A stretch of DNA of 64,000 nt from an uncultured delta proteobacterium (GTDB lineage: Bacteria; Desulfobacterota; Binatia; Binatales; Binataceae): NCBI GenBank assembly GCA_963808235.1, contig CAWEEQ010000004.1, positions 781,084 through 845,083 on the forward strand, written 5' to 3'. A program made the translations under genes and the position numbers. Positions 33,253 to 63,513 of this stretch are shown one piece after another. Each line of letters opens with the position of its first letter. Position 1 is the stretch's first letter. The notes under the pieces were generated by a model that was given only the letters and a program-made list of their open reading frames with translations, was not told the DNA's origin and ran no database searches.

Positions 33253-33262
33253 GCCGAGTGGG

Positions 33263-34786: not shown

Positions 34787-34791
34787 CCGAT

Positions 34792-36375: not shown

Positions 36376-36393
36376 CGAACTTAGGTGTGACCC

Positions 36394-37254: not shown

Positions 37255-37257
37255 GCA

Positions 37258-38379: not shown

Positions 38380-38411
38380 CACACACCACTTAGATGTAGC
38401 ACTGAAAGAAT

Positions 38412-38924: not shown

Positions 38925-38941
38925 ATCAGGAGTCGAACGAG

Positions 38942-40078: not shown

Positions 40079-40085
40079 TAATGTT

Positions 40086-43114: not shown

Positions 43115-43115
43115 C

Positions 43116-44291: not shown

Positions 44292-44304
44292 GAGGAGTTA
44301 TCAA

Positions 44305-45120: not shown

Positions 45121-45139
45121 CGGCAGCCAAGAAGTGAAA

Positions 45140-46570
45140 ATGGAACTCGTGCAGACAGCCAGAGTATCCAAACCGCCGGCCGCCGCGATGCTGGCCGGTG
45201 TGGCGGGGCTTGGCCTGCTCGGCTTGCTGATGCTCAACTATCCGAGCCTCGCGGCCGGCGCGGTGGTCCTTGCCGGCGGAGTCGCGGTCATTTGGGCGGC
45301 CCAGATGGTGCAGGGCAACACTGGCTACCTGCTTTGCTCGCTCCTGGTTATTGAAGAGCTGAGCGGGGCAAACTTTATCCCGCTCACACCCGATCAGCTC
45401 TACCTGGTCCGTTATCCATTGCTGGTTGCATTTTGCGGAGCCTCCGTGTGGAAGGCGCTCCATGACAAAGAGATATGGCGGGGCGGATTCCTTGATTACC
45501 TGATCTATCTTGGTTTTGGCGTTATAAGTATTTCCTATTCACTATTGCCTGGCTATTCGACCGCCAGGATTGCAGCTGCAATTCTGATGTTCATGACGAT
45601 AGTCAGAATTGCCCAAGCAGTAGCTAATCGCGAAGATATCGAGAAGCTACTCAATTGGTATCTGATCGGAACCGGAATCGTCTGGCTGGTGATACTGATC
45701 TGCTCGCTGACCATGTCTTACGATCTGATCTGGGACGTGGAAGACATGACCGGCATTGTTCGCCTGCGCGGCATCTACGGTTCTCCGAATCTGATTGGCG
45801 AAATCGCACTCCCCACCATGGGCGTGGCGGCGGTCATGTGGAACTCGGCCAGCGGATGGAAACGGGCGCTGCTCGCCGCGGAGATAATGCTGGCGGTCAC
45901 GCTCGCGATGCTGGCCGATTCGCGATCGCCATTCATCGGTTTCGGACTCGGCGGGCTCCTCTATTTGATTTGGAGATACCGGTTCCGCGCGGTGCCGATC
46001 ATTCTCGCGCTCGGAGTGGTGGGCTTCGGCCTAATTAGTCAGCTCAATCCCGAGTATCTCAGTCGTGGCGACGTTACCAGTCTCACCGGACGCACCGACA
46101 TCTGGAAGTTTGCGATCGAGAAAATCGAGCAACGTCCGCTGATCGGATATGGCTTCGAGGTCGAAGGCGAAATCATGAAGGCCCACGACTTTCCGATCTG
46201 GTGGGGACCGTGGGAGGAAGGCCCGCGCAGTTCCATCCACAGTGATTATCTGTCGAAGGCGGTCAGCCTCGGCGTCCCGGCGCTGATATTTTGGGTATTT
46301 TTCATCATCCGTCCGTGGCTCGCGCTGCTCCGGCGCAAGGACGATCCGTGGAATCTGAAACCGCTCTTGTTTCTCGTTGTCATTCCGATCCTGATTCTAG
46401 ATTTCACTGAGGCCACCGGCGACTGCCGTTATGCAGTAGGGACGATCGCGACGCTTGGTTGGGCGCTGGCGGAAAGGCAACGACTCGCGAACTTGCGCCG
46501 CCGTCCCGCGGCGCTCCAGCCGGCAGAGCCGATCAACCCGGCGACACCGCTGCTGCGGCGAGTAGGTTAA
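45140..46570 (+). CDS. O-antigen ligase/polymerase-like (Wzy_C domain) integral membrane protein
   Basis: 476 aa with about 10-12 TM helices and a large periplasmic loop (Wzy_C-like). The start is an internal ATG. The ORF-track start at 44963 lies inside the upstream gene. Confidence 0.65.
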   Translation: MELVQTARVSKPPAAAMLAGVAGLGLLGLLMLNYPSLAAGAVVLAGGVAVIWAAQMVQGNTGYLLCSLLVIEELSGANFIPLTPDQLYLVRYPLLVAFCGASVWKALHDKEIWRGGFLDYLIYLGFGVISISYSLLPGYSTARIAAAILMFMTIVRIAQAVANREDIEKLLNWYLIGTGIVWLVILICSLTMSYDLIWDVEDMTGIVRLRGIYGSPNLIGEIALPTMGVAAVMWNSASGWKRALLAAEIMLAVTLAMLADSRSPFIGFGLGGLLYLIWRYRFRAVPIILALGVVGFGLISQLNPEYLSRGDVTSLTGRTDIWKFAIEKIEQRPLIGYGFEVEGEIMKAHDFPIWWGPWEEGPRSSIHSDYLSKAVSLGVPALIFWVFFIIRPWLALLRRKDDPWNLKPLLFLVVIPILILDFTEATGDCRYAVGTIATLGWALAERQRLANLRRRPAALQPAEPINPATPLLRRVG

Positions 46571-46584
46571 CGGATGTGGGCGAC

Positions 46585-47385
46585 ATGAGGCAGAGGACTA
46601 ATAATCTTCCGATACTGATGTATCACGCGATCTGGTCGGGCGCGGACGGTGCGATCCCCAGGACGTCGAGCATCGAGCACGCTGTAAAGGATCGTGACTT
46701 CCGCGCGCAACTCGATGCGATCGTCAGTGGCGCGTTTCACACCATCAAGCTCGCCGACCTCGAGCATCCGGTTGATGCGCCGAAGCCGCTGTTGATCACC
46801 TTCGATGACGGCCATGAAAGCGACTTCACCATCGCCGCGCCCGAGCTCGCGCGGCGAAATCTGCACGCAATCTTTTTTGTCGTATGGTCCTACCTCGGAC
46901 AGCCCGGCTATCTGAGTCGAGAACAAGTGCTCGCGTTGCGTGAGCAAGGATTCGAAATCGGTTCGCATGGACTGACCCACGTCCCGCTCAGCAAGATAAG
47001 TCCGGCGCAAGCGTCGAACGAAATCCTCGAATCGAAGCACAGACTGGAAGACTTGCTCCAGCAGCCAATCGCAGGGCTTGCGCTTCCGTTCGGCCATTAC
47101 AACGATGCGGTGCTGAAAGCCGCGTGGGCCGCCGGCTATCGCCGGGTGATGACCTCGGACTTCAGGATTGCCAATCGGGAGCATCGGATCATGCCGCGGA
47201 TGGGACCGATGGCTGAGCATACGCTGGAGGATTTCAAGTGGATGCTCGAAGCGAGTCGTGCAGCCGCGATTCGTCATCGCACGATTGAGGCGATTGGTGA
47301 GCGGTTGAAACGCTTTATCAGCTATGGAGAGGCGCTGCTGATGCGCGCCCAGAATGGGGAGGTTCTAGCCAAGCCCGAGAAATAG
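46585..47385 (+). CDS. Polysaccharide deacetylase family protein (NodB homology, PEP-CTERM-locus type)
   Basis: NodB motifs LITFDDGHESDF and IGSHGLTHVPL. The start was chosen at the first ATG after the upstream stop. Confidence 0.75.
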   Translation: MRQRTNNLPILMYHAIWSGADGAIPRTSSIEHAVKDRDFRAQLDAIVSGAFHTIKLADLEHPVDAPKPLLITFDDGHESDFTIAAPELARRNLHAIFFVVWSYLGQPGYLSREQVLALREQGFEIGSHGLTHVPLSKISPAQASNEILESKHRLEDLLQQPIAGLALPFGHYNDAVLKAAWAAGYRRVMTSDFRIANREHRIMPRMGPMAEHTLEDFKWMLEASRAAAIRHRTIEAIGERLKRFISYGEALLMRAQNGEVLAKPEK

Positions 47386-47410
47386 TCGGCGCTGACTGAA
47401 AACAAATAAA

Positions 47411-48277
47411 ATGCGTGAACACGAAATGGCCGAATTCTTTCGAGCGCTGGGGCACAAGATCGTCCAGACCCGGAGCTGTTTCTGGTACAGCTCGCAGCGC
47501 TTCCTCTACAAGAACCTGCCGATTCATCGCAACGTCGACCCCTCGCAGTCCGAACTCGCCAAGGTGATGTTCCGCGGGACCGCATTGGCAATTCGTTATC
47601 CGGAAACCGCCGGCGAATCGACCCCGGACGGCGGGATTTACGTTTGCGCGGACCGGAATTACGACTTCGCGTCGCTTACCGCCAATGCTCGCAGCCATAC
47701 CCGGCGTGGACTTGCGCGCAACATCGTCGAACAGGTCGATTTCAATGATCTCGCGAACAAGGCTTACCCGCTAATCCAGGAAACCAACCTGCGCCAGACC
47801 GGAAAACAGCCGATGCGCAGCGAGTCGCATTGGAGATCGTTTTGCGAACTCTCACGCCGAACGCCCGGGCTGGAGGCTTGGGCCGCGTTCGTTGACGGTG
47901 AGCTGGCCGCGTTTATCGTCGCGATGATGGCCGAGGATTGTTACTACCTTCACCTGCAAAAGAGCGCGTCGGCCCTGCTCAAGCACTATTCCAACAACGC
48001 CTTGCTGTTCACCGTGATGAAAGCGGCGCTCGCACGTCCCGAAGTCGGCTGGGTTTCCAACGGACAGATCGCGCTGGCCGCGAAAGAGGGTCTTTACCAT
48101 TTCAAGACCAGCATGGGCTTCGACATCCATCCGTTTAAAGAGCGGCTGGTTTTCAATCCGCTGATCAAGCCTGGTCTGTGGGCGGGCAGGGCGCTGACCA
48201 GCCGGCTCACGAAGGTCAATCCGGAAAATCTTTTCTGGCGGAGAGCTTCACGGGCATTCGACCTGGCGGGGGATTGA
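47411..48277 (+). CDS. FemAB-like / GNAT-fold acyltransferase (PEP-CTERM-system-associated type)
   Basis: 288 aa. Its position and size match the FemAB-related proteins of exosortase loci. The assignment rests on length and context plus weak motif similarity. Confidence 0.5.
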   Translation: MREHEMAEFFRALGHKIVQTRSCFWYSSQRFLYKNLPIHRNVDPSQSELAKVMFRGTALAIRYPETAGESTPDGGIYVCADRNYDFASLTANARSHTRRGLARNIVEQVDFNDLANKAYPLIQETNLRQTGKQPMRSESHWRSFCELSRRTPGLEAWAAFVDGELAAFIVAMMAEDCYYLHLQKSASALLKHYSNNALLFTVMKAALARPEVGWVSNGQIALAAKEGLYHFKTSMGFDIHPFKERLVFNPLIKPGLWAGRALTSRLTKVNPENLFWRRASRAFDLAGD

Positions 48278-48439
48278 GGGCCAGTGAAGACGCATCAAAT
48301 GTCACTGGAAGGTTTGCTCGGAGTCGACGAGACGCAACACGGCCCCTGCAGGAATAGGGCGTTCGGATCAGGCACCGGTATCGTCGGTTGTGAAGGGCCC
48401 TGTATCGGAAATTATCTGAGTCCGGAGGGAACTGGCAGA

Positions 48440-48856
48440 TCAGGCTTCGACTTCCGCGGGCAGGTCTCGAAGGCATTTGCCGCAAAGCGCGTAGCACTCT
48501 TCCGGATCATCGCTCATGGCAAGAATTGCTACCACCCACGAATTGAGATCCGCGCACCGATGACAAACGAGCAAGCCACCTTCGGATCGAATCTTGAACC
48601 AGCACTCGGCGATTGTCACCGGATCTTCGATCAATTCGACGCGTACGCAACTGTCTTCAGGTTCCAAGGACGGTTCCATGACTTCTGGTGCTACGAATTT
48701 GGTGCGGCTGTTCATAGTTAAACCCCTCAGCAAGGTCGCATCGAGCCCTAATCGAGCAACCATCATGCCAGTCAACCGCTTCCTTTCGCCCCGATTAAGG
48801 ACGGCAATTTGATAAGGATTGTGGGCATTGGGAAGGAAATGCCCGGTCGGCGCCAA
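48440..48856 (-). CDS. Hypothetical CxxC...CxxC protein on the minus strand between two plus-strand operon genes (uncertain)
   Basis: A 138-aa ORF with CHRC...CGKC. It fits in the gap once the methyltransferase start is moved to 48873, but it has no recognisable RBS and no known domain. Confidence 0.3.
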   Translation of the reverse strand: MAPTGHFLPNAHNPYQIAVLNRGERKRLTGMMVARLGLDATLLRGLTMNSRTKFVAPEVMEPSLEPEDSCVRVELIEDPVTIAECWFKIRSEGGLLVCHRCADLNSWVVAILAMSDDPEECYALCGKCLRDLPAEVEA

Positions 48857-48872
48857 TTCGGGAGGTTTGTCG

Positions 48873-49745
48873 ATGCTGTTGGAGTCTAAAGAGGTGAAAA
48901 ATTTACGGGATTACCGGATTGAGCCTGATACGGCAATTCCGTTAAGGGTTGTTCGTCCAAGTAGAGTCAGGGAACTAACGATGTTCGAGGGAATATCGAG
49001 AGCGCCGTCTGATCATGGACCAGACGATGAACATGGGAATAGACTCCGCGGCCACCTGAAACGACGGGCCATCGATGAGATCGAACGGCTTTTCGGTTGG
49101 CTGAACAAACGCCAGCGAATCGAACCATCGGCACAACTGGTCAAGGTGAACCTGGGCAGCGGACTCTTCGTGGCTCCGGGATGGATCAACCTGGATGCCA
49201 GCGTAAAAACCGTGTTCGCGAGGCTCCCGCGTTTCGCGCTGCGCTGGACCTATCCGCTGGCGAACGTCCGGAACACGCACTCGCGCGATGAATTCGTCGC
49301 CTTGCTGCGGGATAATCGGTTTATTTTCCACAATTTGAAATATGGAATCCCGCTTCGAGATTCTTCGGTTGATTTCATTTATGCCTCCCACATGTTGCAT
49401 CACCTCTATCGTGACGACGCTTTGAAACTTCTTCGGGAGGCAATCCGGGTGCTCAAGCCAGGCGGCACCATGAGAATTGCGGTGCCAGATCTCGAACTTA
49501 TCGTCCGGCTATATCTGGAAGGGAGACGCGAGCAGGCACTGGGATATTTTTTCTATTTGCGGAGTCCAAGGAGCAACTTGAGCAGGCGCTACTATCAGTA
49601 CGATTTCACGCTCTTGAAGGTTCTTATGGAAGAAGCCGGAGCGCGGAACGTCCGACGTTGCAAGTTTCGGGAGGGCAGGGTCCCTGACCTCGAGCAGCTC
49701 GACCGGTTGTCCGAGGAGACCCTGTTCGTGGAAGGGGAACGTTAA
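48873..49745 (+). CDS. Class I SAM-dependent methyltransferase
   Basis: Motif I-like GSGLFVAPGWINLD and the Methyltransf_11-type region LREAIRVLKPGGTMRIAVPD. GGGAGG lies 7 nt upstream of 48873. Confidence 0.7.
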   Translation: MLLESKEVKNLRDYRIEPDTAIPLRVVRPSRVRELTMFEGISRAPSDHGPDDEHGNRLRGHLKRRAIDEIERLFGWLNKRQRIEPSAQLVKVNLGSGLFVAPGWINLDASVKTVFARLPRFALRWTYPLANVRNTHSRDEFVALLRDNRFIFHNLKYGIPLRDSSVDFIYASHMLHHLYRDDALKLLREAIRVLKPGGTMRIAVPDLELIVRLYLEGRREQALGYFFYLRSPRSNLSRRYYQYDFTLLKVLMEEAGARNVRRCKFREGRVPDLEQLDRLSEETLFVEGER

Positions 49746-53810: not shown

Positions 53811-55274
53811 GTGCCGGCGTGTGTAGGGCGAGAGCTGGGGAGTAGCTCTGGTATGGCAGATCGGTCGCGATGGCAGATTCCGGTTACAACGGTACCCGCA
53901 ATCGTACTTGTGTTGCTTGGTTACGATGGCTTGAACTCGCTCATTGGGGGAGCGCAGGCGATCGTTCCAACGCTGACTTACGTTTCAACATCGAATGGCG
54001 CGACCTTTTTCGTATCTCTTGATGGCAGAGATTCGGGGGCGGGTAGCTCGGGTTCTCCGTGGCGGACGATTCAAAAAGCGGCCGACACGTTGCAGCCCGG
54101 GCAGACCGCGATAGTAGCGGCCGGCAACTACGGCGAGCGGGTGGAGATTTCGCATTCGGGGACGCGGACGGCTCGGATCACATTACGAGCCGCGAGCGGT
54201 GCGGACGTTCAGCTCCTGGGCTTCGATCTTACCGGAAGCAACTGGGTGCTGAGCGGGTTTGATATCTCCACCCGCAGGAACGGGCGCCAGGGCTATGGGA
54301 TCCACGTGTCCGGTTCGGCCTCGCACGACATTATTCAGAACAACTACATCCATGAACTTTGCCGCGAGGGGATTTTCATGGAGTCGGGAGTCTCGTACAT
54401 TTCGGTTCTCAACAACCGCATCTGGCGGGCCGAGATGGCGGGTGCGCAGGTCGACGGCACCGACGACCTGATCGAAGGCAACGAAGTCTGGGGAACTCAG
54501 CAGGAGCCGGTCCGGGCCGGTGGAATCTATTCGGGATGCGTAACGCCCGACGGCGCCGACGCGGACGCGTTCCGCTTCTTCGGGCAGCATAACGTGTTCC
54601 GATCCAACTACGCGCACGACGTCTACACCGCGTTGCCGACCAACCCCGATCCGCATACCGACTGCTTTCAGACCTGGGGCAGCACCGCGATGAAGGTGGA
54701 CGACATCCTCATCGAGCGAAACGTCTGCCGCTGGCCGGTCGCGTCGACCAAGGTGGACGCGTCGACCGCGATGATCGAGGGAATCGACGGGCCGGTGGGA
54801 ACAGTGACCTTCCAGAACAACCAACTGTCGAATATGCGGCAGGGGATTGTCGTCGGGAATAAGGTCGAGGCGCTGAAGATCTACAACAACACCTGGGACC
54901 ACATCGTGGAAGAAGCGCTGATCTTCAACGACACGAGATCTCCTGCCGACGAGATCATCAACAATATTTTCTATGACGTCGGCGCTGGCGGCGATGCTTA
55001 CGCGTCGGTTCCGAGCGGCAGCCCGCTCTTCCGGAGCAACGTCTTCTACATGCCGGGCGGTGCCAGCGTTGGCACTTATCCGAGCGTGGAGCCCTATACA
55101 AGCGTCGATCCGAGGTTCGCCAACCCCGGCGACTCGACCGGTGCCGGCGCCGATCTGCATCTCCAGGAAAGCTCGCCGCTCAAGCGCTCCGGGGTAACGC
55201 TTCCCCAGGTTACCGATGACTACTACGGAACCAGCCGCGCCGGTGCGGCGTACTCAGTGGGTGCCGCGCGATGA
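53811..55274 (+). CDS. Secreted right-handed parallel beta-helix protein (pectate-lyase-fold; candidate polysaccharide lyase/hydrolase), paralog A
   Basis: A hydrophobic N-terminal segment, then PbH1-like repeats (GNYGERVEI, GFDLTGSNWVLSGFDIS, GIHVSGSASHDIIQNNYIH, NNRIW...). Alternative start at 53853 (MADRSRW). Confidence 0.65.
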   Translation: MPACVGRELGSSSGMADRSRWQIPVTTVPAIVLVLLGYDGLNSLIGGAQAIVPTLTYVSTSNGATFFVSLDGRDSGAGSSGSPWRTIQKAADTLQPGQTAIVAAGNYGERVEISHSGTRTARITLRAASGADVQLLGFDLTGSNWVLSGFDISTRRNGRQGYGIHVSGSASHDIIQNNYIHELCREGIFMESGVSYISVLNNRIWRAEMAGAQVDGTDDLIEGNEVWGTQQEPVRAGGIYSGCVTPDGADADAFRFFGQHNVFRSNYAHDVYTALPTNPDPHTDCFQTWGSTAMKVDDILIERNVCRWPVASTKVDASTAMIEGIDGPVGTVTFQNNQLSNMRQGIVVGNKVEALKIYNNTWDHIVEEALIFNDTRSPADEIINNIFYDVGAGGDAYASVPSGSPLFRSNVFYMPGGASVGTYPSVEPYTSVDPRFANPGDSTGAGADLHLQESSPLKRSGVTLPQVTDDYYGTSRAGAAYSVGAAR

Positions 55275-55507
55275 TTGTCACTATGGGGACACCGTCGCGC
55301 GCAGTCGGCCGTGGACGGGCAGACCGGTTGCGCGATCCCTCATGTGTCAGGGGCGTAGCCTCTCTGCGACAGTTTGTTGCACCTTCCGCAAACAAGGAAC
55401 CAGTTGTCTTAGTGAGTTGTAGCGAATCACTACAACGCGCAACGGCACATTTCGTGCTCCGCAGACTTGTTGGATTCTCGCGTCGCTTTAGGTTGATCGG
55501 GTTCGCA

Positions 55508-55583
55508 TCGGAGCGTTGCTGTCGCTCCGGTGCGGACCAATTCAAAGCTCCAGCCGGAGCGTTGCTGTCGTTCCGGCGCGGAC
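55508..55583. repeat. Two 30-nt direct repeats (tcggagcgttgctgtcgctccggtgcggac / ccggagcgttgctgtcgttccggcgcggac), each containing a 7-bp inverted repeat CGGAGCG-N7-CGCTCCG
   Basis: Direct reading of the sequence. 27/30 identity with 46 nt spacing, in the 500-bp intergenic region before paralog B. Confidence 0.8.
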
Positions 55584-55721
55584 GGAAACAAACGGAGCGC
55601 GCCGGCAAATGCCCCGCGCTCAGGGGAAAAGGAGTGCGACACTGATGTATCGGTAACTTGCGATGGAGTGCTGTCCATCGCAGGTACCGATCCCACATTG
55701 CACCAAAGCGTTTTTAAGTCA

Positions 55722-55755
55722 GGCGCCACGTGTTGCCTTTAGTGATCGTGGCGTC
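55722..55755 (+). promoter_or_regulatory. 5'-leader inverted repeat GGCGCCACG-N16-CGTGGCGTC, 17 nt upstream of the ATG of paralog B
   Basis: A 9-bp stem. The same element in a covarying form sits at 58031..58064 before paralog C. A GGGGGAG Shine-Dalgarno sequence follows. Confidence 0.6.
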
Positions 55756-55772
55756 GGGCTTGGGGGAGAAAA

Positions 55773-57860
55773 ATGGCAACAGAAAAGGCCTTGGGCCTGC
55801 GCAGGCTAATCCTTGTCGCGGCGATCGGATTTCTTCTGATCCTGCTCGGTCACAGCCGGGCATACGCTGCGAGTCCCATCCACATTAACAAACCGGCACC
55901 CGACTCGGTCGTCTCCGACTTGGTGACCACGCTGGTTCGGGTCAAGCCGAAGGTCGCCAAGATAGTTTTCATGCTCGATGGCAACCCGCTGTCGACCACT
56001 ACCTCAACCAGCTTCACCTGGAATTCGGCGACGGTTGCGAACGGGATGCATACCATCGCCGCCAGCGCCTACTCTTCATCCAACCAGTTGCTGAAGACGG
56101 TCACCGAGCAAATCAGAGTTGCGAACAAAAAACCTCCTCCGCCGACTCGTACTCCGACGCCAACCTCCACGCCGACGGCCACCCCGGTGCTTTCGTTCGT
56201 GTCTCCGACCAGCGGGCAGACGCTCAGCGGATCGATAAGCGTCGCGCTGTCATTCTCGAGCCCACCATCGCAAACCAACCCTGGCGCGGTTTGGTGGACC
56301 GAATTGTCCGTCGACGGTGCACCGGTGGTTTCCGGATACAACAATTTGCCCTGGGACACGACCACGGTCGGCAACGGATCGCATACCTTGCGCGTGGATG
56401 GTTACGCGTACAACGGGACAACTTCGATCGGCAATGCGACCATCAACGTGACGGTCAACAACTCGGGCGTAACCGCAACTCCGACGGCTTCATCGACGCC
56501 CACGATCGGCCCGACGCCGACCGTGACCGCTACACACACGGGCACCCCAACCACCGCTCCGACGCCGACTGCGACACGAACGGCGACTCCGACTCTCGGC
56601 GCGACACCGACTGCGACGTCCACCCTGCACGCGACCCCGACTGCGACGTCAACGCCGGGCGGATGCGTCAGCATCACGGCACCGGCTCCCAGCGCGACCG
56701 TCAATGGCATCGTGGCCATCAACACTAACGACACTTGCTCAGGCGCCTGGTTTGAATCGCTCTACGTCGACGGCGCGCATGTTTCCGACTTTCCGGTCGG
56801 ACAGATCATGTTCACGAGCACTAGCTACGCCAACGGGATGCACACCATCCAGGTGACCAGCCAGAGCACCAATCCGGGTTCGGTCCAGCTTGGCAGCGCG
56901 TCCGAAGCGTTGAACGTGCAGGCGGGTTCGGCGACCAAGACAGCCACCGCGACGCCTACCACGAAGCCGAGCGCGACGCCGACGCCGGGAGGGGGCCATT
57001 ACTCAATGATGGGACCCGGAGCGTCTCTGCCGAGCGAAGCGGCTTGCGTCAGCGCGGTGAACGCGTCGCCTATTCCGGAGAACGCGCCGTGGAACCAGGA
57101 CGACGGCACCGGCTTTAACTCGAATCTGCCTCCATCCGGCGGTGTGCCGGCGTACTTCTACGCCAACGCGCCGTGCTGCAACGAATTGCCGCATGCGGAT
57201 TTTGCCAACGTCGACGGAAACTATTCGGGCTCCACAGATGACCTCATCCGAATCACCGCCTGCAAGTGGGGTATCGACGAAGACTACGTGCGCTCGCAGG
57301 CGTGGATCGAATCCGATTGGCATCAGGACTGCTCCGCGGCGCATGGCGGCTCCGACTGTCAGGAAGGCGGCGATATGGACAGCCCGAGCGGCGATCCGTC
57401 AGGCCTGGCGGTCACTTCGATATCGCCGGGAGGCGTATTCAGCGCCTTCAACGGATTTGGAAATCCCGGCGGCCCAACCGATCACTGGGATTCGTGGAGC
57501 ATCGTTCAGACCAAGGTGTACTACGAGTGGATGACGTGGCCGATGATGGAGGAGTCCACGCCTTTCGGGCTCGATTTTCGCTACGCGGAGATGCGCGGTT
57601 GCGTCAACGGCGATCAATATAGCTACTACAATAGCCAGTCATCCGCGCAGGGCACTGACTATCAGAATGCCGTCAATGCCGCCCGCAACAATCCGAACGG
57701 AGCATCGGCAGTCACAGGCTGGACCAACCTTCAGTACCTTTCGTACGGATGCATCGACACCCACTTTTCCGGCGACTGGTTCAACGGCACAGCCGACAGC
57801 TATCTGAACGAGTTCCTGAACAGGTTGGCAACCGCACCGTGGCCGGGCGGTCTGCAGTAG
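55773..57860 (+). CDS. Secreted multi-Ig-like-domain protein with Pro/Thr linkers and a Cys-rich about 290-aa C-terminal domain of unknown function, paralog B
   Basis: Signal peptide LILVAAIGFLLILLGHSRAYAAS, three Ig-like modules of about 90 aa separated by (PT)n and TPTATxT linkers, and a C-terminal domain with 8 Cys including a CC pair (APCCNELPH) and CKWGIDEDYVRSQAWIESDW. Confidence 0.7.
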   Translation: MATEKALGLRRLILVAAIGFLLILLGHSRAYAASPIHINKPAPDSVVSDLVTTLVRVKPKVAKIVFMLDGNPLSTTTSTSFTWNSATVANGMHTIAASAYSSSNQLLKTVTEQIRVANKKPPPPTRTPTPTSTPTATPVLSFVSPTSGQTLSGSISVALSFSSPPSQTNPGAVWWTELSVDGAPVVSGYNNLPWDTTTVGNGSHTLRVDGYAYNGTTSIGNATINVTVNNSGVTATPTASSTPTIGPTPTVTATHTGTPTTAPTPTATRTATPTLGATPTATSTLHATPTATSTPGGCVSITAPAPSATVNGIVAINTNDTCSGAWFESLYVDGAHVSDFPVGQIMFTSTSYANGMHTIQVTSQSTNPGSVQLGSASEALNVQAGSATKTATATPTTKPSATPTPGGGHYSMMGPGASLPSEAACVSAVNASPIPENAPWNQDDGTGFNSNLPPSGGVPAYFYANAPCCNELPHADFANVDGNYSGSTDDLIRITACKWGIDEDYVRSQAWIESDWHQDCSAAHGGSDCQEGGDMDSPSGDPSGLAVTSISPGGVFSAFNGFGNPGGPTDHWDSWSIVQTKVYYEWMTWPMMEESTPFGLDFRYAEMRGCVNGDQYSYYNSQSSAQGTDYQNAVNAARNNPNGASAVTGWTNLQYLSYGCIDTHFSGDWFNGTADSYLNEFLNRLATAPWPGGLQ

Positions 57861-57877
57861 TCGGCGAAAACGAAACA

Positions 57878-57914
57878 GTTGGGGGCGACTGGATACTCAG
57901 TCAGCGCCCCCAAC
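57878..57914 (+). terminator. GC-rich stem-loop (GTTGGGGGCG-N17-CGCCCCCAAC) 18 nt after the stop of paralog B
   Basis: A perfect 10-bp stem. It lacks a downstream U-tract, so it is a candidate intrinsic terminator or RNA-stabilising hairpin. Confidence 0.5.
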
Positions 57915-58030
57915 AAATGTCACTGTGGAGACATTTAGATAGTCAATAACGATAGTCAGAACCAGGCTGGAACGAGGTCCGATAGTAGGCGCTGGCTGTA
58001 GATTGCCGGGGAATTGGGTTTTTTAAGCCA

Positions 58031-58064
58031 GGCACCGCGTGTTGCCTTTAGTGGTCGTGGTGCC
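58031..58064 (+). promoter_or_regulatory. 5'-leader inverted repeat GGCACCGCG-N16-CGTGGTGCC, 18 nt upstream of the ATG of paralog C
   Basis: Homologous to 55722..55755, with three substitutions that all preserve base pairing. Confidence 0.6.
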
Positions 58065-58082
58065 GGGCTTGGGGGAGAAAAA

Positions 58083-60323
58083 ATGGCAACGGAAAAGGCC
58101 TTGGGCCTGCGCGGGCTGCCGCTTGTCGCGACGGTCGGACTGTTTCTTATGCTGCTCGGTCACGGCCAGGCTTACGCGGCGGGTCCCATCCACATTAATG
58201 CGCCGGCCCCGGACGCGGTCGTCTCCGACATGGTGACGACATTGGTTCGGATCAAGCCGCAGGTCGCTCGGGTAGTTTTCCTGCTTGACGGCAACCTGTT
58301 GGCGTCGACTTCGTCCACCAGCTACACGTGGGATTCGGCGACGGTTGCGAACGGTATGCATACCATCGCGGCCAGCGCCTATACTTCATCCAATCAGTTG
58401 CTGCGCACTGTCTCCGAGCGAATCAGGATTGCGAACAAGCATAAACCGACTCCAACCCCCACTCCGACCACCACGCCGACTGTTACTGCCACTGCCACGA
58501 CCAACCCCACACCGACCGCGACTGCCACCTCGACACGGACGAGGACTCCAACTGTCACCGCGACGACGACCGCGAGTGCCACTGCGACACGAACGGCGAC
58601 TGCGACTGGGACACGAACGGCGAGCCCGACCCCGACTGCGACGTCAACGCCGGGCGGATGCGTCAGCATCACGGCACCGGCTCCCAGCGCGACCGTCAAT
58701 GGCATCGTGGCCATCAACACCAACGACACTTGCTCAAGCGCCTGGTTTGAATCGCTCTACGTCGACGGTGCGCATGTTGCCGATTTTCCGGTCGGACAGA
58801 TCATGTTCACGAGTACGAACTACGCCAATGGAATGCATACCATCCAAGTGACCAGCCAGAGCACCAATCCGGGTTCGGTCCAGCTTGGCAGCGCGTCCGA
58901 AGCGTTGAACGTGCAGCCGGGCGCCACGGCCACGCCGACATCAACCGCGACGCCAACGGCGACCTCCACATCGACTTCGTCGGTCCAGCCGACCCCGACG
59001 GCCACGTCGACGCCCAACGGCTCGACGTTCTACGTATCGCCAACCGGTAGCGACTCGGCGTCTGGCAGTTCGGGCTCACCATGGCGCACGATTCAGAAGG
59101 CAGCGGACACGCTGCTGGCGGGACAGACTGCGATCGTATCGGCAGGCAACTACGGCGAGCGCGTCTCGATCTCGCGCTCCGGCACGTCGTCCAGTCCGAT
59201 CACCTTGCAGGTCGCAAGCGGTGCGGATGCCCAACTCCTCGGCTTCGATCTCACAGGCAGCAACTGGGTTCTGGACGGCTTTGACATCTCGACCCAGACC
59301 AATGGCAGCGAAGGGTACGGGATCCACGTAGACGGTTCGGCCTCGTATGACACGATTCAGAACACCTATATCCATGAACTCTGCCACGAGGGCATTTTCA
59401 TGGAGTCAGGGGTCTCGCACATCTCGGTGCTGAACAACCGCATCTGGCGGGCCGAGATGGCAGGTGTGCAGGCCGATGGCGTGTACGATCTGATCGAGGG
59501 CAACGAAGTCTGGGACACTCAGCAGTATGCGATGAATGCGGGTGGAATTTACTCGGTGTGCACGATTGCCGGCGGCGCCGATGCGGACGCGTTCCGCTTC
59601 TTCGGCCAACATAATGAGTTCCGTTCTAACTACGCACACGACATTTACCACGATATGCCAGGCGATCCGCATCCTACCAATCCCAATCCTCACACCGATT
59701 GCTTCCAAACTTGGGGGAACTCTGCAATGACGGTGAGCGATATTCTATTTGATCGCAACCTTTGTCGCTGGCCAGGAACTAATCAATTTCAGCTTGCAAA
59801 TATAAATTCTACAACGCTTGCAAACATTGGGGTTAATGAAGGCGCAGTAACTAACTTAACCTTTCAAAACAACATACTCTCCAATTCAGGACAGGGAATA
59901 GATATTGAAGGTGGCGTTGGTCCAGTAAACGCTTATAACAATACTTTTGTTCATATAGCGCAGGAAGGATTAGTTTGTAATGGCGCTCGTACATCAGCGG
60001 ACCAGATCATGAACAACATTTTCTACGATGTTGGCGATGGTGGTGATTCGTACACTTCAGGCTGTCAGAATTCAACATTCAATAATAATGACTTCTACAT
60101 GCCGGGCGGCGTCAGCGTCGGCACCTATCCGAACGTCGAGCCGTACCTGAGCCTCGATCCGTTGTTCGTCAACTTCGGCGACGCGACCGGCGGCGGCGGG
60201 GATTTCCATCTGCAGTCCGGCTCGCCGCTAAAAGGCGCCGGGACCACGGTCTCGACCGTCACCAATGACTACTACGGCACCAGCCGGGTGGGGGCAGCAT
60301 ACTCAGTCGGCGCCGCTCAATGA
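58083..60323 (+). CDS. Secreted mosaic protein: Ig-like modules (as paralog B) fused to a right-handed beta-helix (as paralog A), paralog C
   Basis: The N-terminal 300 aa are about 85-97% identical to paralog B, including a near-identical segment of about 295 nt. The C-terminal 450 aa are about 75% identical to paralog A. The start was chosen at MATEKALG by homology; the ORF track extends to 58014. Confidence 0.7.
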   Translation: MATEKALGLRGLPLVATVGLFLMLLGHGQAYAAGPIHINAPAPDAVVSDMVTTLVRIKPQVARVVFLLDGNLLASTSSTSYTWDSATVANGMHTIAASAYTSSNQLLRTVSERIRIANKHKPTPTPTPTTTPTVTATATTNPTPTATATSTRTRTPTVTATTTASATATRTATATGTRTASPTPTATSTPGGCVSITAPAPSATVNGIVAINTNDTCSSAWFESLYVDGAHVADFPVGQIMFTSTNYANGMHTIQVTSQSTNPGSVQLGSASEALNVQPGATATPTSTATPTATSTSTSSVQPTPTATSTPNGSTFYVSPTGSDSASGSSGSPWRTIQKAADTLLAGQTAIVSAGNYGERVSISRSGTSSSPITLQVASGADAQLLGFDLTGSNWVLDGFDISTQTNGSEGYGIHVDGSASYDTIQNTYIHELCHEGIFMESGVSHISVLNNRIWRAEMAGVQADGVYDLIEGNEVWDTQQYAMNAGGIYSVCTIAGGADADAFRFFGQHNEFRSNYAHDIYHDMPGDPHPTNPNPHTDCFQTWGNSAMTVSDILFDRNLCRWPGTNQFQLANINSTTLANIGVNEGAVTNLTFQNNILSNSGQGIDIEGGVGPVNAYNNTFVHIAQEGLVCNGARTSADQIMNNIFYDVGDGGDSYTSGCQNSTFNNNDFYMPGGVSVGTYPNVEPYLSLDPLFVNFGDATGGGGDFHLQSGSPLKGAGTTVSTVTNDYYGTSRVGAAYSVGAAQ

Positions 60324-60372
60324 TGGGCGCGGAGGAGATCGAAGATAGTCAATAGCTATAGTCAGAATCAGT

Positions 60373-61695
60373 TCAGAGCGACGTCCGGTAATAGTGAATC
60401 GATTGCCGCAACCCGCCTCCGAGGCGGGTGCGGATGTACCCCAGCATCTCATTCGTCAGCAGGTACTTGGGGCGCAGATAAACGCCGCCATTGTTGAGCG
60501 AGAACAGGATGCGGTGGAATTTCCAGTTGTTGAAATTGCGCAGCAGCCGGAACCGCGCCGATACTCCCAGCGTCTGTATCCCGAAAGGGAACTTGAAGCC
60601 AAACCAAAGCGGCTGAGAATTGATCGCCAGGTCGGGCTCGGTCGAATTGTCTATTTCCTCGAGCGAACCCTCCGCCAACCTGAACCTGACCGTCTTGTCG
60701 AGGTCGGGTATCTGAATAGTCACTGGACGGAGCATCCGTAGCAGGAGCATCGAGTATTTGTCGCGCATCTGCGCGGCAAGACCGTCGTAAGCGGCAACAA
60801 TTTCAGGCATCGATTTGCTCTCGACCGGATCGTACGTGCGCTCATCGACGCTCGGCAGTTGATCGAATCGCGTCAGCGCATCCGACGAATCGTGTTCGGC
60901 GCCAACTTCGTAGATATCCCCCGGATACAGCACCACTGCGCGCTGACCTTGGCGGCTTAAATAATTGGCGGCGTCGCGCGCGGAATTCGCAAAATTATTG
61001 ACGTACTTGTTGTCGAGGCTCGAAAAGTAGATGAAGCTCGCAAACGGGATTGTCGCTTTCGCATCCAGGCCGCGATGCACTGAAGATACATTTTCGAGAA
61101 TCTGCGCAGCTCGCTGCGGCAGAAATTTCTCATGCGGCTCAAAGCCGGCGTAGGCGGCCAGCGAGAACTGATTAAGGAGAACATCGACGCGTCCGATGTC
61201 GTGCAGGATGCCCTTGCATTCGCCGGCGCTGATGCGTGCGTCGTTGGCGTTGAAGATGACTTGTCCTTTACTCAGTACCGCCAGCGCGGAGTCCATTATC
61301 CCGGCGTGATAGCAATATACTTTCGTCGCATCGGGCTTGCTGCTCAGCGATACGATCATCCGATGCGGCAGCCGCTGAAATCGCTCATAGCCAAGCTTGC
61401 GAAACGCCGCGAACATCTTTGTGTAATCGCGATCCTGAAAGAGGATCGTCACCCGCGCTTTGAAGTCAGCCGGAAATGATCCGAGGGTCGGGAAGTGACA
61501 ATGATCGGGATGCTCGTGCGAGATCCAGATGTACTCGACCTTGTCGAGCACCGCCTGGTCGAACTTTGGTTCCGGCAGCAGAGTCCATGAGTCGTTGAAA
61601 ATTTTTCCGAATAGCCAGGGATCCATCAGGATCGACGTGTCGGCGCATTCCGCGACGATGCATGCATGTCCGACAAAGTGAATTTTCATGAGCAC
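60373..61695 (-). CDS. MBL-fold metallo-hydrolase family protein, hypothetical
   Basis: HEHPDH (HxHxDH) motif near the N-terminus. 440 aa. Confidence 0.6.
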   Translation of the reverse strand: MLMKIHFVGHACIVAECADTSILMDPWLFGKIFNDSWTLLPEPKFDQAVLDKVEYIWISHEHPDHCHFPTLGSFPADFKARVTILFQDRDYTKMFAAFRKLGYERFQRLPHRMIVSLSSKPDATKVYCYHAGIMDSALAVLSKGQVIFNANDARISAGECKGILHDIGRVDVLLNQFSLAAYAGFEPHEKFLPQRAAQILENVSSVHRGLDAKATIPFASFIYFSSLDNKYVNNFANSARDAANYLSRQGQRAVVLYPGDIYEVGAEHDSSDALTRFDQLPSVDERTYDPVESKSMPEIVAAYDGLAAQMRDKYSMLLLRMLRPVTIQIPDLDKTVRFRLAEGSLEEIDNSTEPDLAINSQPLWFGFKFPFGIQTLGVSARFRLLRNFNNWKFHRILFSLNNGGVYLRPKYLLTNEMLGYIRTRLGGGLRQSIHYYRTSL

Positions 61696-62109: not shown

Positions 62110-63513
62110 GTGAAAGTGACCCTGGTTTCGCATGCTTCGGTGATAATTGAGTCACAAGGAGTCAGAATTTGGACTGACCCGTGGCTCACGGGCAAAGTCT
62201 TCAATGAATCGTGGTCGCTGTTTCCGCCGGCGGCATTTGATCCTGCGATGCTTGATTCGATCGACTACCTGTGGATTTCGCACATTCATCCGGATCACTT
62301 CCACATTCCAAGCCTGAATTCGCTTTCCCCGCAGTTCAAACGCCGGGTCAAGGTCCTGTTCCAGGACAATCACGCCGATCAACTTTTCGAAGTGATGAAA
62401 AAGTGCGGATACCAGAACTTCCAGGCGCTGCGGCATCGCCGGATGGAGTCTCTCAGCGAGCACACGTCAGTCTACTCCTACAGCGCCGGGACCCTGGATT
62501 CCTGCCTGGGCGTGATGGAGCCGGAAGGGGGCTTGTTCAACATCAACGACTCGCGGCTGAATGCGACCGATTGTCGTCGTGTGAAGTCGGACATGGGGCG
62601 GATAGACACGGTGCTGAGCCAGTTTTCGCTGGCGGTCTATAATGGTCTTCAACCGCGCGAATCTCATCTGCGCCGCGGCGCGGCGGCGATGTTGGAAAAG
62701 ATTTTCGATAATCACGCGAACCTGGGCGCCCGGATCACGATTCCGTTCGCGAGCATGATGCGTTTTTCGCTGGTCGACAATCGTTACATGAATGCATTTG
62801 CGAACCGTCCGCGCGACGTGTGGGAACATGCCGCCGTACGAGGTCTCGGGGTGGCGATCCTGTTCCCGGGCGACACTTACAATTCATCCACCAGCTACGA
62901 TTCGACCCAGGCGCTTGAAAAATACGACGCGGTCTACGAGACCATCGACCAGTTTCCCTACGACACGCCGGCGGCGGTCCCGCTGCAGCCGATCGAAGAA
63001 GCTTTCCACGAGATGGTACGCCATTTGCGTGAAAAGTATCCCGCGCCGATACTTCGGATGCTGCGCGGGGTGGTGGTGAAGTTGCCCGACCTCGACAAGA
63101 CCGTGGCGTTTTCGATTCCGGCCGACTCCTTCAGCGAAGTCGATTCGTCAGAGTCGCCCGACATCTTGATGTGTTCGCAGGCCCTGCATTTTTGTTTCTT
63201 CCGTCCGTACGGGCTGCAGACGCTCTCGAGCTCGGCGCAGCATACCGTGGTGCGCAACCTGGCGAATTGGCGGATCCATCGCGCGCTGTTCGCGCTGAAC
63301 AATGCGCAGGCATACGGCCGACTCCGCTATCTGCTTCGCCGCGACACCATAAGTTTTTTCGCGAAAAGAATTAGAGCCATGGTCCGTTACACCGACCTCA
63401 CCCACGCCCGGCTCAGATATCCGTACAGCTATAAGCCAAAGCATCACTCCAGCATCCCAACTGAGGCGGGGCAGGTAATGGGTCCGTTGGATCGATCCGG
63501 GCATTCGGAGTGA
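62110..63513 (+). CDS. MBL-fold metallo-hydrolase family protein, paralog of 60373..61695 (divergently transcribed)
   Basis: GTG start. HIHPDH motif. The N-terminal 70 aa are collinear with the minus-strand paralog (VxxHAxxxxExxxxxIxxDPWLxGKxFNxSWxLxP...WISHxHPDHxHxP). Confidence 0.6.
   Translation: MKVTLVSHASVIIESQGVRIWTDPWLTGKVFNESWSLFPPAAFDPAMLDSIDYLWISHIHPDHFHIPSLNSLSPQFKRRVKVLFQDNHADQLFEVMKKCGYQNFQALRHRRMESLSEHTSVYSYSAGTLDSCLGVMEPEGGLFNINDSRLNATDCRRVKSDMGRIDTVLSQFSLAVYNGLQPRESHLRRGAAAMLEKIFDNHANLGARITIPFASMMRFSLVDNRYMNAFANRPRDVWEHAAVRGLGVAILFPGDTYNSSTSYDSTQALEKYDAVYETIDQFPYDTPAAVPLQPIEEAFHEMVRHLREKYPAPILRMLRGVVVKLPDLDKTVAFSIPADSFSEVDSSESPDILMCSQALHFCFFRPYGLQTLSSSAQHTVVRNLANWRIHRALFALNNAQAYGRLRYLLRRDTISFFAKRIRAMVRYTDLTHARLRYPYSYKPKHHSSIPTEAGQVMGPLDRSGHSE

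Follow-up and report, generated by a model that had tools for sequence, protein, structure and literature searches.

We conclude that the neighbouring genes B and C of an uncultured Candidatus Binataceae genome have probably undergone concerted evolution by gene conversion of their Ig-like modules, with catalytic domains that follow histories of their own. C is thus best explained as something other than a hybrid of genes A and B. A, B and C are taken to be exported proteins with two unrelated catalytic-type domains among them, only B and C being Ig-swapping genes, and the beta-helices of A and C to be old paralogues with a pectate-lyase fold. To this reading as a whole we assign a probability of roughly 0.7.

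Architecture and setting of the three genes

The analysed window comprises 64,000 nt, in which A, B and C are neighbours within a Wzx/Wzy-type exopolysaccharide (EPS) gene cluster. An ORF listing returned the three ORFs where the first-pass annotation had placed them. The upstream EPS operon (positions 32512-49745) encodes Wza, GNVR, DegT, Bac_transf, a flippase, GT4, Wzy, a deacetylase and an acetyltransferase; its AAA_22 protein has a LysM domain. The three genes had been described as lying directly downstream of this operon. The operon is real, but about 4 kb with genes for a Crp-type regulator, a membrane protein, an HTH_34 regulator and UppS, and an unassigned ORF, separates it from A. 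In all relatives examined, A-, B- or C-type genes likewise formed part of the EPS cluster and were followed downstream by a GT2 gene.

Gene A (53853..55274, plus strand; 473 aa) belongs to an ORF that opens with GTG at 53811; its likely start is the ATG at 53853, and the protein starting there equals database protein P0143. An N-terminal hydrophobic signal or anchor is followed by a right-handed parallel beta-helix (53997-55271), with Pfam matches to Beta_helix, the DUF1565 N-cap and NosD. Inspection of the sequence across the gene revealed no Pro/Thr (PT) linker, repeat DNA or Ig module.

Gene B (55773..57860, plus strand; 695 aa; identical to P0166) is preceded by an untranslated leader (55711..55772) homologous to that of C. 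It encodes, with approximate boundaries, a Sec signal peptide (55773-55871), Ig1 (55872-56126), a PT linker, Ig2 (~56187-56462), a PT linker (56463-56660), Ig3 (56661-56924), a further PT linker (56925-56990) and a catalytic-type domain (56991-57857). Pfam Big_7 matched B in two stretches (33 bits), and the same architecture was found independently in P0170 (L008).

Gene C (58083..60323, plus strand; 746 aa; leader 58020..58082) is represented in a public collection by an exact protein from the same 3.85-Mb contig. The gene consists of a signal peptide (58083-58181), Ig1 (58182-58436), a PT linker (58437-58652), an Ig3-type module (58653-58916), a PT linker (58917-59018) and a beta-helix (59019-60320), with Pfam matches to Big_7 and Beta_helix. 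P0091, P0092 and P0093 share its architecture and position. The linkers of B and C consist of short tandem repeat DNA, a feature previously ascribed to all three genes.

The domain layout of the first-pass annotation, with a hydrophobic N terminus and beta-helix in A, a signal peptide and three Ig modules in B, and a signal peptide and two Ig modules ahead of a beta-helix in C, thus held, except that the C-terminal domain of B, then unassigned, has a lysozyme-like fold. The term "three-gene family" did not hold. A and B share no sequence, so we are dealing with two catalytic families joined via C.

Could the arrangement be an assembly artefact, caused by repeat-induced chimerism or collapse? 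Short-read metagenome contigs frequently end within B or C: both L001 and a 96,994-bp JGI contig begin in a B-like gene, and there are four 104-aa C-terminal fragments. However, a single public contig of 3,849,788 bp carries all three genes, the repeat is only 295 nt long with 13 differences between its two copies, and data from independent samples and assemblers again show the B-type and C-type architectures as well as the B-C-MBL order. An artefact is therefore extremely unlikely.

Sequence exchange between the Ig modules of B and C

Pairwise nucleotide alignment revealed unequal divergence along the genes, as anticipated. The Ig3 tract, which includes the end of the preceding PT linker, extends from 56632 to 56926 in B and from 58627 to 58921 in C (both plus strand). 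Its 295 nt differ at 13 sites (95.6% identity; 10 of the 13 are transitions), confirming the near-identity of about 96% noted before. A 295-nt window with at most 13 mismatches did not occur in any of 200,000 permutations, and the longest identical run was 94 nt (p = 0.0003). The edges of the tract are sharp, with only about 50% identity just outside on both sides.

B and C are also related over the signal peptide and Ig1 (75% aa, 82-83% nt identity) and over 62 nt of 5' untranslated sequence. The corresponding blastn match (55711-56176 versus 58020-58480; 81.4%) begins 62 nt upstream of both start codons, and a leader like that of B also precedes the C-type genes of L001 and L009. Leader, signal peptide and Ig1 together are about 82-84% identical (83.7%). 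The earlier statement that the other shared parts reach only 80-85% therefore applies to this segment, but not to the A and C beta-helices (70-75%).

Synonymous divergence between B and C was 0.166 in Ig3 (dN, 0.015) and 0.39 in the signal peptide and Ig1. The corresponding dN/dS ratios of 0.09 and ~0.36 indicate purifying to relaxed constraint and lend no support to the diversifying selection suggested before. In comparison, dS between C and its orthologue P0092 was 0.63 for Ig3 and 0.80 for the signal peptide and Ig1; Ig3 orthologues overall ranged from 0.63 to 0.70, and the baseline from neighbouring genes was 0.73-0.83. The B-C tandem is common to three lineages. Since the Ig modules of the paralogues (dS 0.17 and 0.39) are nevertheless less diverged than those of orthologues (0.6-0.8), they point to repeated, module-sized and linker-bounded gene conversion.

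In line with this, neighbour-joining trees, built from short modules of about 90-120 aa, paired B with C for both Ig3 (100% bootstrap) and Ig1 (98%). A second lineage gave the same picture: the lysozyme-linked P0168 and the beta-helix-linked P0092 have mutually nearest Ig3 modules (89% aa identity; bootstrap 95%). In L001, the P0092 gene is preceded by a partial ORF that is 100% identical over 90 aa to the C terminus of P0168, and on this identity the two proteins, which no joined contig links, probably come from one genome.

A single duplication without conversion, after which stronger purifying selection simply made Ig3 evolve more slowly than Ig1, would also predict unequal divergence. Indeed, Ig3 is the more constrained module among orthologues (dN 0.11 versus 0.29 for Ig1, C versus P0092), and the within-genome synonymous contrast between Ig3 and the signal peptide plus Ig1 is modest by itself (Fisher p = 0.034), so that the case for conversion combines this contrast with orthologue dS and the trees. 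Slower evolution of Ig3 does not account for its low dS between paralogues whose tandem arrangement predates the lineage split, for the sharp tract edges and the 94-nt identical run, or for the in-genome pairing in the second lineage, and we regard a history without conversion as quite improbable. Recent gene conversion between B and C, as proposed in the first-pass annotation, best explains the near-identical Ig3 tract.

According to the model that we favor, the Ig modules common to B and C are not independent in their evolution: module-sized stretches bounded by repetitive linker DNA have been copied repeatedly between the tandem genes, resulting in their concerted evolution. The linker repeats would provide the homology that sets the tract ends. 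Ig3 was homogenized recently and the leader, signal peptide and Ig1 earlier, in both cases after this lineage had diverged from relatives in which the B-C tandem was already present. C has the old architecture of the locus, while its N-terminal modules are kept similar to the ones in B.

Concerted evolution of shared modules by gene conversion is a known phenomenon, and the modular glycanases of Cellulomonas and Cellvibrio carry PT-linked homologous accessory modules on differing catalytic domains, shuffled between genes. In contrast to these examples, the swap seen here involves a pair of adjacent genes, its tract ends fall in linker DNA, and it has occurred in two lineages or more. The organisms are members of an uncultured phylum, and their modules are of the Big_7 Ig-like type instead of recognized CBMs.

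Separate histories of the A and C beta-helices

The first-pass annotation regarded C as a chimera of A and B that ends in the beta-helix of A. Such a recent in-genome assembly, in which the signal peptide, Ig1 and Ig3 of B were joined to a copy of the A beta-helix, would fit the homology of C to B over the leader and these modules and to A over the beta-helix, as well as the finding that B and C are mutually nearest for Ig1 and Ig3. However, the A and C beta-helices are only 66% identical at the aa level and 70% at the nt level overall (72-75% in BLAST segments), with a saturated dS of 1.49. The C beta-helix has orthologues with 92-94% aa identity (P0091, P0092 and P0094) and clusters with P0091, P0092, P0094 and P0095 (100% bootstrap), whereas that of A groups with 11 short orthologues (78%).

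Furthermore, the slot that C occupies, directly before the MBL-fold gene MBL(-), holds an Ig-beta-helix gene in L001 and L009 (both Ig1-Ig3-beta-helix) and in L005 (Ig1-Ig2-beta-helix), and junction relics remain in genomes that lack such a gene. The architecture is therefore old at this locus and was not built here from A and B. With its old architecture and a catalytic domain of separate history, C is not an A+B hybrid, and its recent assembly in this genome is highly unlikely.

Lysozyme-like domain of B and proposed function

The C-terminal domain of B (56991..57857, plus strand) has a lysozyme/lytic-transglycosylase-like fold with eight Cys residues. It contains an invariant Glu513-Ser514 within AWIESDW, and its family comprises about 1,400 clusters and is without a Pfam model. 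A further motif, S-x-G/S-I-x-Q-x-K, was also seen. B itself gave no significant match to Pfam SLT; 2 of 40 homologues matched it at E = 0.12, and 17 of the 40 had faint GH73 matches. The fold resembles that of family 1 lytic transglycosylases/GH23 (Slt70, MltC, MltE, MltF) and g-type lysozyme. Unlike these, the B domain is twice the GH23-type length (about 290 aa), has Cys-rich insertions, and occurs fused to Ig modules in this gene and to Wzy_C or GH5 in other proteins.

A polysaccharide-cleaving role, already put forward in the first-pass annotation, is plausible from folds and gene context. We infer that A, B and C act on a glycan by cleaving or trimming it, the most likely substrate being the amino-sugar-containing EPS of this very cluster, and that the Ig modules could serve B and C as shared targeting or anchoring modules. 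An outer-membrane export route for the proteins was not identified.

Alternatively, the beta-helices could be adhesins or surface-layer proteins, and B could act on peptidoglycan as a lytic transglycosylase, opening the sacculus to make room for export machinery, for instance. The folds nearest to the B domain are peptidoglycan enzymes, the operon's AAA_22 protein has its LysM domain, and a stand-alone homologue of the B domain lies in a housekeeping neighbourhood (L010), which makes peptidoglycan a possible substrate. On the other hand, every relative examined has these genes in an EPS cluster with the GT2 gene downstream, distant members of the B domain family are fused to a Wzy_C polymerase and a GH5 glycanase, and invariant Asp/His clusters on the beta-helix (D236, D238, H255, D256, H268 and D270) suggest an active or metal site. 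We thus consider a function outside EPS processing rather unlikely.

Matches to NCBIfam PelN and PelX were confined to the N-cap and stayed far below their cut-offs (31-36 bits versus 740). The beta-helix can be likened to the PL9 family enzyme Pel9A (PDB 1ru4; PF22842 Pel9A-like_beta_helix, PF13229 Beta_helix), but its context here is an EPS cluster and not pectin use. Another known system close to this one is RbmB of Vibrio cholerae, a polysaccharide lyase that acts on VPS and whose gene lies between the vps clusters (PMC11637428, PMC12993940; PDB 9ozd). Its sequence identity to the beta-helix proteins described here is only 15%, and it lacks Big_7 modules and PT linkers.

Gain, loss and exchange at the locus in related genomes

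Related genomes differ in the modules that they have at the locus, a comparison proposed in the first-pass annotation. There is one Ig1-Ig2-beta-helix gene in L005, A together with Ig1-Ig3-Lys in L006 and L007, Ig1-Ig2-Ig3-Lys without C in L008, and a Lys gene with Ig1-Ig3-beta-helix after it in L001 and L009. Both entire genes and individual Ig modules are gained and lost between genomes. The order of events could involve tandem duplication, replacement of a catalytic domain, or loss and regain of C.

The spacer between B and C contains a degenerate relic (57879..57988, plus strand) that combines the final ~30 nt of a beta-helix ORF, the intergenic DNA after it and the final ~25 nt of MBL(-). 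Its Smith-Waterman score against 60288-60394 was 60, compared to 16 ± 2.1 for shuffled sequences; blastn aligned 57893-57988 with 60299-60394 at 72% identity, and the relic also appeared in multiple alignments A4 and A5.

This pattern would be expected if the Ig-beta-helix gene upstream of MBL(-) had been duplicated in tandem together with its 3' junction, and the beta-helix of the upstream copy, except for the last ~30 nt, had been swapped for a lysozyme-like cassette to give B; genomes without C would later have lost it by junction recombination. The leader, signal peptide and Ig1 that B shares with Ig-beta-helix genes agree with such an origin. Donors exist, since in many Binataceae genes the lysozyme-like domain stands by itself or is joined to just one Ig3-type module. 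In L006, a relic of a beta-helix 3' end directly follows the stop codon of the B-like gene (score of 100 against the end of C in L009), but it could equally well stem from a simple deletion in which only the final 30 nt of a C gene stayed behind. Moreover, the B-C spacer of L001 and L009 contains a hairpin and no relic, and the window relic has an 11-nt insertion in common with the C-MBL junctions of the window and L001, which suggests later duplication or conversion of the junction. Six loci are too few to fix the order of events, and we offer this origin of B only tentatively.

The catalytic domains, in turn, follow their own histories, the C beta-helix being orthologous to those of the same-slot Ig-beta-helix genes. 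Part of it was swapped recently with another lineage: a recombination tract of ~600 bp (59524..60123, plus strand) is 98-99% identical to the C-type gene of L001. Sliding-window identity between the two sequences peaked here above a baseline of 77-87%, with shoulders of 91-93% at 59224-60573, and dS was 0.048 for aa 481-680 of C versus 0.73-0.75 in the adjacent MBL genes.

Modular organization of the three genes

ORF calling placed the three genes on the plus strand, as the first-pass annotation had positioned them, and a cluster look-up found A, B and C on a single 3.85-Mb contig. The ORF of gene A opens with GTG at 53811, but its likely start is the ATG at 53853, which gives a product of 473 aa (database protein P0143), whose hydrophobic N-terminus leads into a beta-helix (Pfam Beta_helix, 41.8 bits; DUF1565 N-cap; NosD). 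Gene B (55773-57860, plus strand) encodes 695 aa, identical to database protein P0166. It has a Sec-type signal peptide with cleavage between AYA and A, three Ig-like modules separated by Pro/Thr (PT) linkers, and a C-terminal domain of 289 aa without a Pfam match. Big_7 was matched in two stretches of B (33.0 bits; cut-off, 24.1), and the middle Ig-like module gave a weak match to BiPBP_C. Gene C (58083-60323, plus strand; 746 aa) combines a signal peptide like that of B with two Ig modules and a beta-helix, and both of its Pfam matches exceed the curated cut-offs (Big_7 [PF17957], 28.2 versus 24.1 bits; PF13229, 29.2 versus 25.9 bits). In line with the beta-helix assignments, which are to the right-handed parallel, pectate-lyase-like type, an AlphaFold model of A (51 sequences) is a right-handed beta-helix with a pLDDT of 83, and PF22842 is annotated on homologues.

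A and B have no sequence in common. PT linkers encoded by repetitive DNA, formerly ascribed to all three genes, are present in B and C, where Tandem Repeats Finder detected short-period repeats in the linker DNA; A has no such linker. The spacer between A and B (55275-55772; approximately 500 nt) resembles the 355-nt A-B spacer of the related loci L006 and L007 at the nucleotide level only in its last approximately 40 nt, which correspond to the leader shared by B and C, and it matched no Rfam family. Likewise, no RNA element was detected by Rfam at the locus or in its surroundings, and the scan for promoters and terminators at the locus remained at chance level.

Concerted evolution of the Ig modules of B and C

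According to blastn and MAFFT, B and C are homologous in two parts. The first comprises a 62-nt 5' leader, the signal peptide and Ig1 (55711-56176 versus 58020-58480; 81% identity), and the second comprises linker and Ig3. The second part contains a block of high identity (B, 56632-56926; C, 58627-58921), in which only 13 of 295 nt differ (95.6% identity); the initial 94 nt are without mismatch, and 10 of the 13 mismatches are transitions. Outside the block, in the adjoining linker DNA, identity drops at once to approximately 50%, and it is 83.7% in the other shared part. When mismatch positions were reshuffled across all alignable B-C sites, none of 200,000 permutations produced as few as 13 mismatches in any window of 295 nt, and the identical run of 94 nt had a P value of 0.0003. 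Thus, the near-identity of Ig3 in B and C, which had been noticed in the first-pass annotation, was confirmed, and its edges are sharp. A diversity-generating retroelement was rejected as the source of this tract, because the mismatch spectrum is ordinary, with transitions of all kinds, and no RT-like gene was present among the neighboring genes scanned.

The divergence of the coding sequences, estimated by the Nei-Gojobori method, differed between the two parts. For B versus C, dS was 0.39 and dN was 0.14 in the signal peptide and Ig1, while dS was 0.166 and dN was 0.015 in Ig3. This synonymous contrast within the genome is modest when taken alone (Fisher P = 0.034), and the decisive evidence is the comparison with orthologues. 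Between C and its orthologue P0092 at the related locus L001, dS was 0.80 for the signal peptide and Ig1 and 0.63 for Ig3, with 0.73 to 0.83 for the flanking genes. Furthermore, the flanking metallo-beta-lactamase (MBL)-fold genes, A, and the C-terminal domain of B showed dS values of 0.59 to 0.83 in comparisons with five related loci. The dS between the paralogues lies well under that between orthologues, and hence the modules within this genome are much closer to each other than orthologous modules are across genomes.

At L001, the end of a partial B-type gene is followed by the C-type gene for P0092 and by the same two MBL-fold genes, and locus L009 (P0093) is arranged likewise. The B-C tandem is therefore older than the split of these lineages, and the low divergence between B and C must stem from subsequent homogenization. 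Indeed, in neighbor-joining trees, B and C paired with 100% (Ig3) and 98% (Ig1) bootstrap support, leaving out the orthologues of both. A second lineage behaves alike: the C-terminus of P0168, an Ig1-Ig3 protein ending in the same type of C-terminal domain as B, is 100% identical over 90 aa to the partial ORF that precedes the P0092 gene at L001, suggesting that P0168 and P0092 come from one genome, and their Ig3 modules are mutually closest (89% aa identity; bootstrap, 95%).

We conclude that a sharp-edged tract, a paralogue dS below the orthologue dS, and the repeated grouping of modules by genome together bear the hallmark of recurrent gene conversion, with concerted evolution confined to the shared modules and tract ends in repetitive linker DNA. 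The homogenization affects Ig3 as well as the leader, signal peptide and Ig1, and the unequal divergence, the dS strata and the trees uphold the earlier proposal of a mosaic structure shaped by gene conversion. The linker repeats would supply the homology at which the conversion tracts end. This is a clean and quantifiable case of concerted evolution at the level of modules, in two adjacent genes with unrelated catalytic domains and with tracts ending in PT-linker DNA; separate lineages of the uncultured phylum Binatota show the same pattern. The modular exchange had also been taken as a sign of diversifying selection; positive or diversifying selection was not supported, since dN/dS was below 1 wherever it was measured.

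Origin of C

The first-pass annotation had regarded C as a chimera of A and B and had put all shared parts other than Ig3 at approximately 80 to 85% identity. The beta-helices of A and C are far more distant than that, with 72 to 75% nt identity in BLAST segments, 70% nt identity overall and 66% aa identity (dS, 1.49; dN, 0.22). In a tree of 73 beta-helix sequences, A fell among 11 short orthologues without Ig modules (clade bootstrap, 78%), while C belonged to a separate, long-branched clade together with P0091, P0092, P0094 and P0095 (100% bootstrap; 82 to 94% aa identity among them). Moreover, the slot directly upstream of the minus-strand MBL-fold gene that follows C is occupied by an Ig-beta-helix gene at L001, L009 and the more distant locus L005, which argues that this architecture is old at the locus. 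At L005, the same exopolysaccharide (EPS) operon and a Crp-type regulator precede a single Ig1-Ig2-beta-helix gene. These results show that the beta-helices of A and C are old paralogues, and the descent of C from A and B was not borne out. The earlier reading was largely right in what it observed, and right on mosaicism and gene conversion, but wrong on the origin of C.

Variation of the locus and exchange between lineages

Gene content varies between genomes. Besides the single Ig1-Ig2-beta-helix gene of L005, we found an A-type gene with an Ig1-Ig3 gene carrying the C-terminal domain of B (here called the Lys domain; 56991-57857 in B) at L006 and L007, and an Ig1-Ig2-Ig3-Lys gene at L008, all three loci without C. 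The window has A, Ig1-Ig2-Ig3-Lys and Ig1-Ig3-beta-helix, and L001 and L009 have a Lys-type gene and Ig1-Ig3-beta-helix. Among approximately 200 homologues, the beta-helix was preceded by Ig1 and Ig2, by Ig1 and Ig3, or by Ig3 alone, and the Lys domain was preceded by Ig1 and Ig3, by all three modules, or by Ig3 alone; either domain also occurred on its own. These combinations establish genuine shuffling of modules across the wider family; it is only the particular descent of C from A and B that fails. The homologues with names belong to Candidatus Binataceae. With C as a single-protein query, the scan of genome contigs returned only three Big_7 matches, all distant (L002 to L004).

The C-terminal half of the C beta-helix has a different recent history. 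Identity to L001, followed along the window in a sliding comparison, reached 98 to 99% at 59524-60123, against a baseline of 77 to 87%, and the shoulders of the tract (59224-60573) were 91 to 93% identical. In line with this, dS relative to L001 was 0.048 for aa 481 to 680 of C and 0.73 to 0.75 for the adjacent genes, and flanking genes had a nucleotide identity of approximately 80 to 85%. P0092 is encoded identically on contigs of two samples, so the tract is not the product of a chimeric contig. We conclude that the stretch at 59524-60123 was recently exchanged between lineages by homologous recombination. Together with the conversion of the Ig modules, this illustrates how secreted carbohydrate-active enzymes can retain matching accessory modules even as their catalytic domains diverge, are replaced by others or pass from strain to strain.

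Contigs from short-read metagenomes repeatedly begin within a B- or C-type gene, as at L001 and on a JGI contig of 96,994 bp; further examples are P0355 to P0358, four independent C-terminal pieces of C-type genes, each of 104 aa. Such contig starts suggest strain-level heterogeneity or assembly-breaking repeats at the locus.

Junction relics

The spacer between B and C contains a degenerate copy (57879-57988) of the sequence at 60288-60394, made up of the last approximately 30 nt of the beta-helix ORF, its intergenic DNA and the last approximately 25 nt of the minus-strand MBL-fold gene (Smith-Waterman score of 60; shuffled sequences, 16 ± 2.1). At L006, which is without C, a relic of a beta-helix 3' end (about 11677-11775) directly follows the stop codon of the B-type gene and scores 100 against the end of C at L009. 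L005, which lacks the minus-strand MBL-fold gene, retains a relic of the 3' end of that gene after its long gene (about 12040-12119). The relics indicate that the slot upstream of the MBL-fold gene was long occupied by an Ig-beta-helix gene and that genes were duplicated and deleted here. They are compatible with two histories: B may derive from a tandem duplicate in which the Lys domain took the place of the beta-helix, or C may simply have been lost in some lineages, with a junction duplication in the lineage of the window.

The C-terminal domain of B

The C-terminal domain of B has a lysozyme-like fold, an assignment made by fold comparison alone. Pfam searches of B yielded no match to SLT (PF01464; lytic transglycosylases, GH23), with no family at an E value of ≤0.01 or ≤1; among homologues of the domain, SLT appeared in 2 of 40, at an E value of 0.12. 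The threshold of the GH73 N-acetylglucosaminidase profile (PF01832) was not reached, and searches of the PDB with the single sequence or a profile gave no sequence match. At the sequence level, the domain has a putative catalytic Glu in a Glu-Ser motif (E513-S514 of B, in AWIESDW), which is invariant in alignments of 40 homologues and of 7 distant ones, and a second motif of the GLMQ type (SWSIVQTK in B; SYGIMQIK, SYGILQVK or SFGLLQIK in distant members). The two are similar to motifs I and II that characterize family 1 lytic transglycosylases.

The family, whose homologues include P0211 to P0352, comprised 1,438 clusters (50% identity) in a full profile search (E ≤ 1e-3). Ten distant members were scanned with Pfam, and no model covered the Lys domain itself in any of them; of the ten, P0233 and P0250 carry Wzy_C as a fusion partner, P0314 a GH5 cellulase and P0286 a dockerin. 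The fusions to Wzy-type polymerases and to the GH5 glycanase could point to surface polysaccharides or exopolysaccharides as substrates, rather than peptidoglycan; peptidoglycan as the substrate of B is a live alternative. The idea that stand-alone Lys genes always lie in polysaccharide loci was refuted by a homologue at L010, which sits among housekeeping genes.

We tentatively propose, as a reading that is more doubtful than probable, that the domain of B represents an undescribed lysozyme-fold family of glycoside hydrolase or lyase type (approximately 1,400 clusters, no Pfam model) whose native substrates are surface polysaccharides or exopolysaccharides rather than peptidoglycan. In this proposal, the linker-bounded Ig modules would be exchangeable targeting cassettes, matched by conversion so that two glycanases address the same strain-specific polymer. 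A lysozyme-fold family without a Pfam model, linked to polysaccharide synthesis by context and fusions, is a target for enzyme discovery.

Relation to the exopolysaccharide cluster

Upstream of A lies a Wzx/Wzy-type EPS operon (32512-49745) with genes for Wza, a GNVR protein, an AAA_22-LysM protein, an oxidoreductase, a DegT aminotransferase, an initiating sugar transferase, a flippase, GT4, Wzy, a polysaccharide deacetylase, an acetyltransferase and a methyltransferase. Between the operon and A are genes for a Crp-type regulator, an HTH_34 regulator and UppS. In relatives, the glycanase genes directly follow the crp gene and precede the MBL-fold genes and a GT2 gene, an order showing that the glycanase genes are embedded in the EPS cluster.

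RbmB is a Vibrio polysaccharide lyase from the vps/rbm region (PMC11637428, PMC12993940). By analogy with RbmB acting on VPS, A, B and C may trim or break down the polysaccharide that their cluster makes, which probably contains amino sugars. The Ig modules would serve as shared targeting or anchoring modules, whose match is preserved by conversion. The beta-helix alignment was inspected with the calcium-binding Asp cluster and the catalytic base of polysaccharide lyase family 9 (Pel9A) in view: D236, D238, H255, D256, H268 and D270 are invariant, R241 and R293 are nearly so, and no lysine is invariant. By sequence, A matched a single PDB entry, the GH120 xylosidase 3vst in its N-cap, and this match is uninformative on function.

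A literature search on Binatota EPS biology and on gene conversion of modules in carbohydrate-active enzymes (CAZymes) found nothing directly relevant. The phenomenon is of known kinds, comprising CAZymes of modular build, concerted evolution and depolymerases encoded in EPS clusters. Such depolymerases are established, as are domain shuffling and gene conversion, and current understanding is not overturned; what is worth recording is module-bounded conversion between genes with differing catalytic domains, and an uncurated, polysaccharide-linked lysozyme-fold family.

Three further features of the cluster were observed. Two divergent, paralogous MBL-fold (Lactamase_B_3) genes of approximately 440 to 467 aa, at 60373-61695 (minus strand) and 62110-63513 (plus strand), flank the locus in all relatives examined, where a GT2 gene comes after them. 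The AAA_22-LysM protein of the EPS operon (34717-36375) joins an AAA_22 ATPase to a C-terminal LysM (peptidoglycan-binding) domain, which bears on whether the machinery of the cluster touches the cell wall. Finally, a short ORF at 44068-45120, overlapping the GT4 and Wzy ORFs, has only the central UDP-glucose/GDP-mannose dehydrogenase domain (PF00984); it is positionally conserved in the EPS operon of relatives (L005, 4099-4509; L006, 1239-2054) and may encode a truncated or unusual dehydrogenase.
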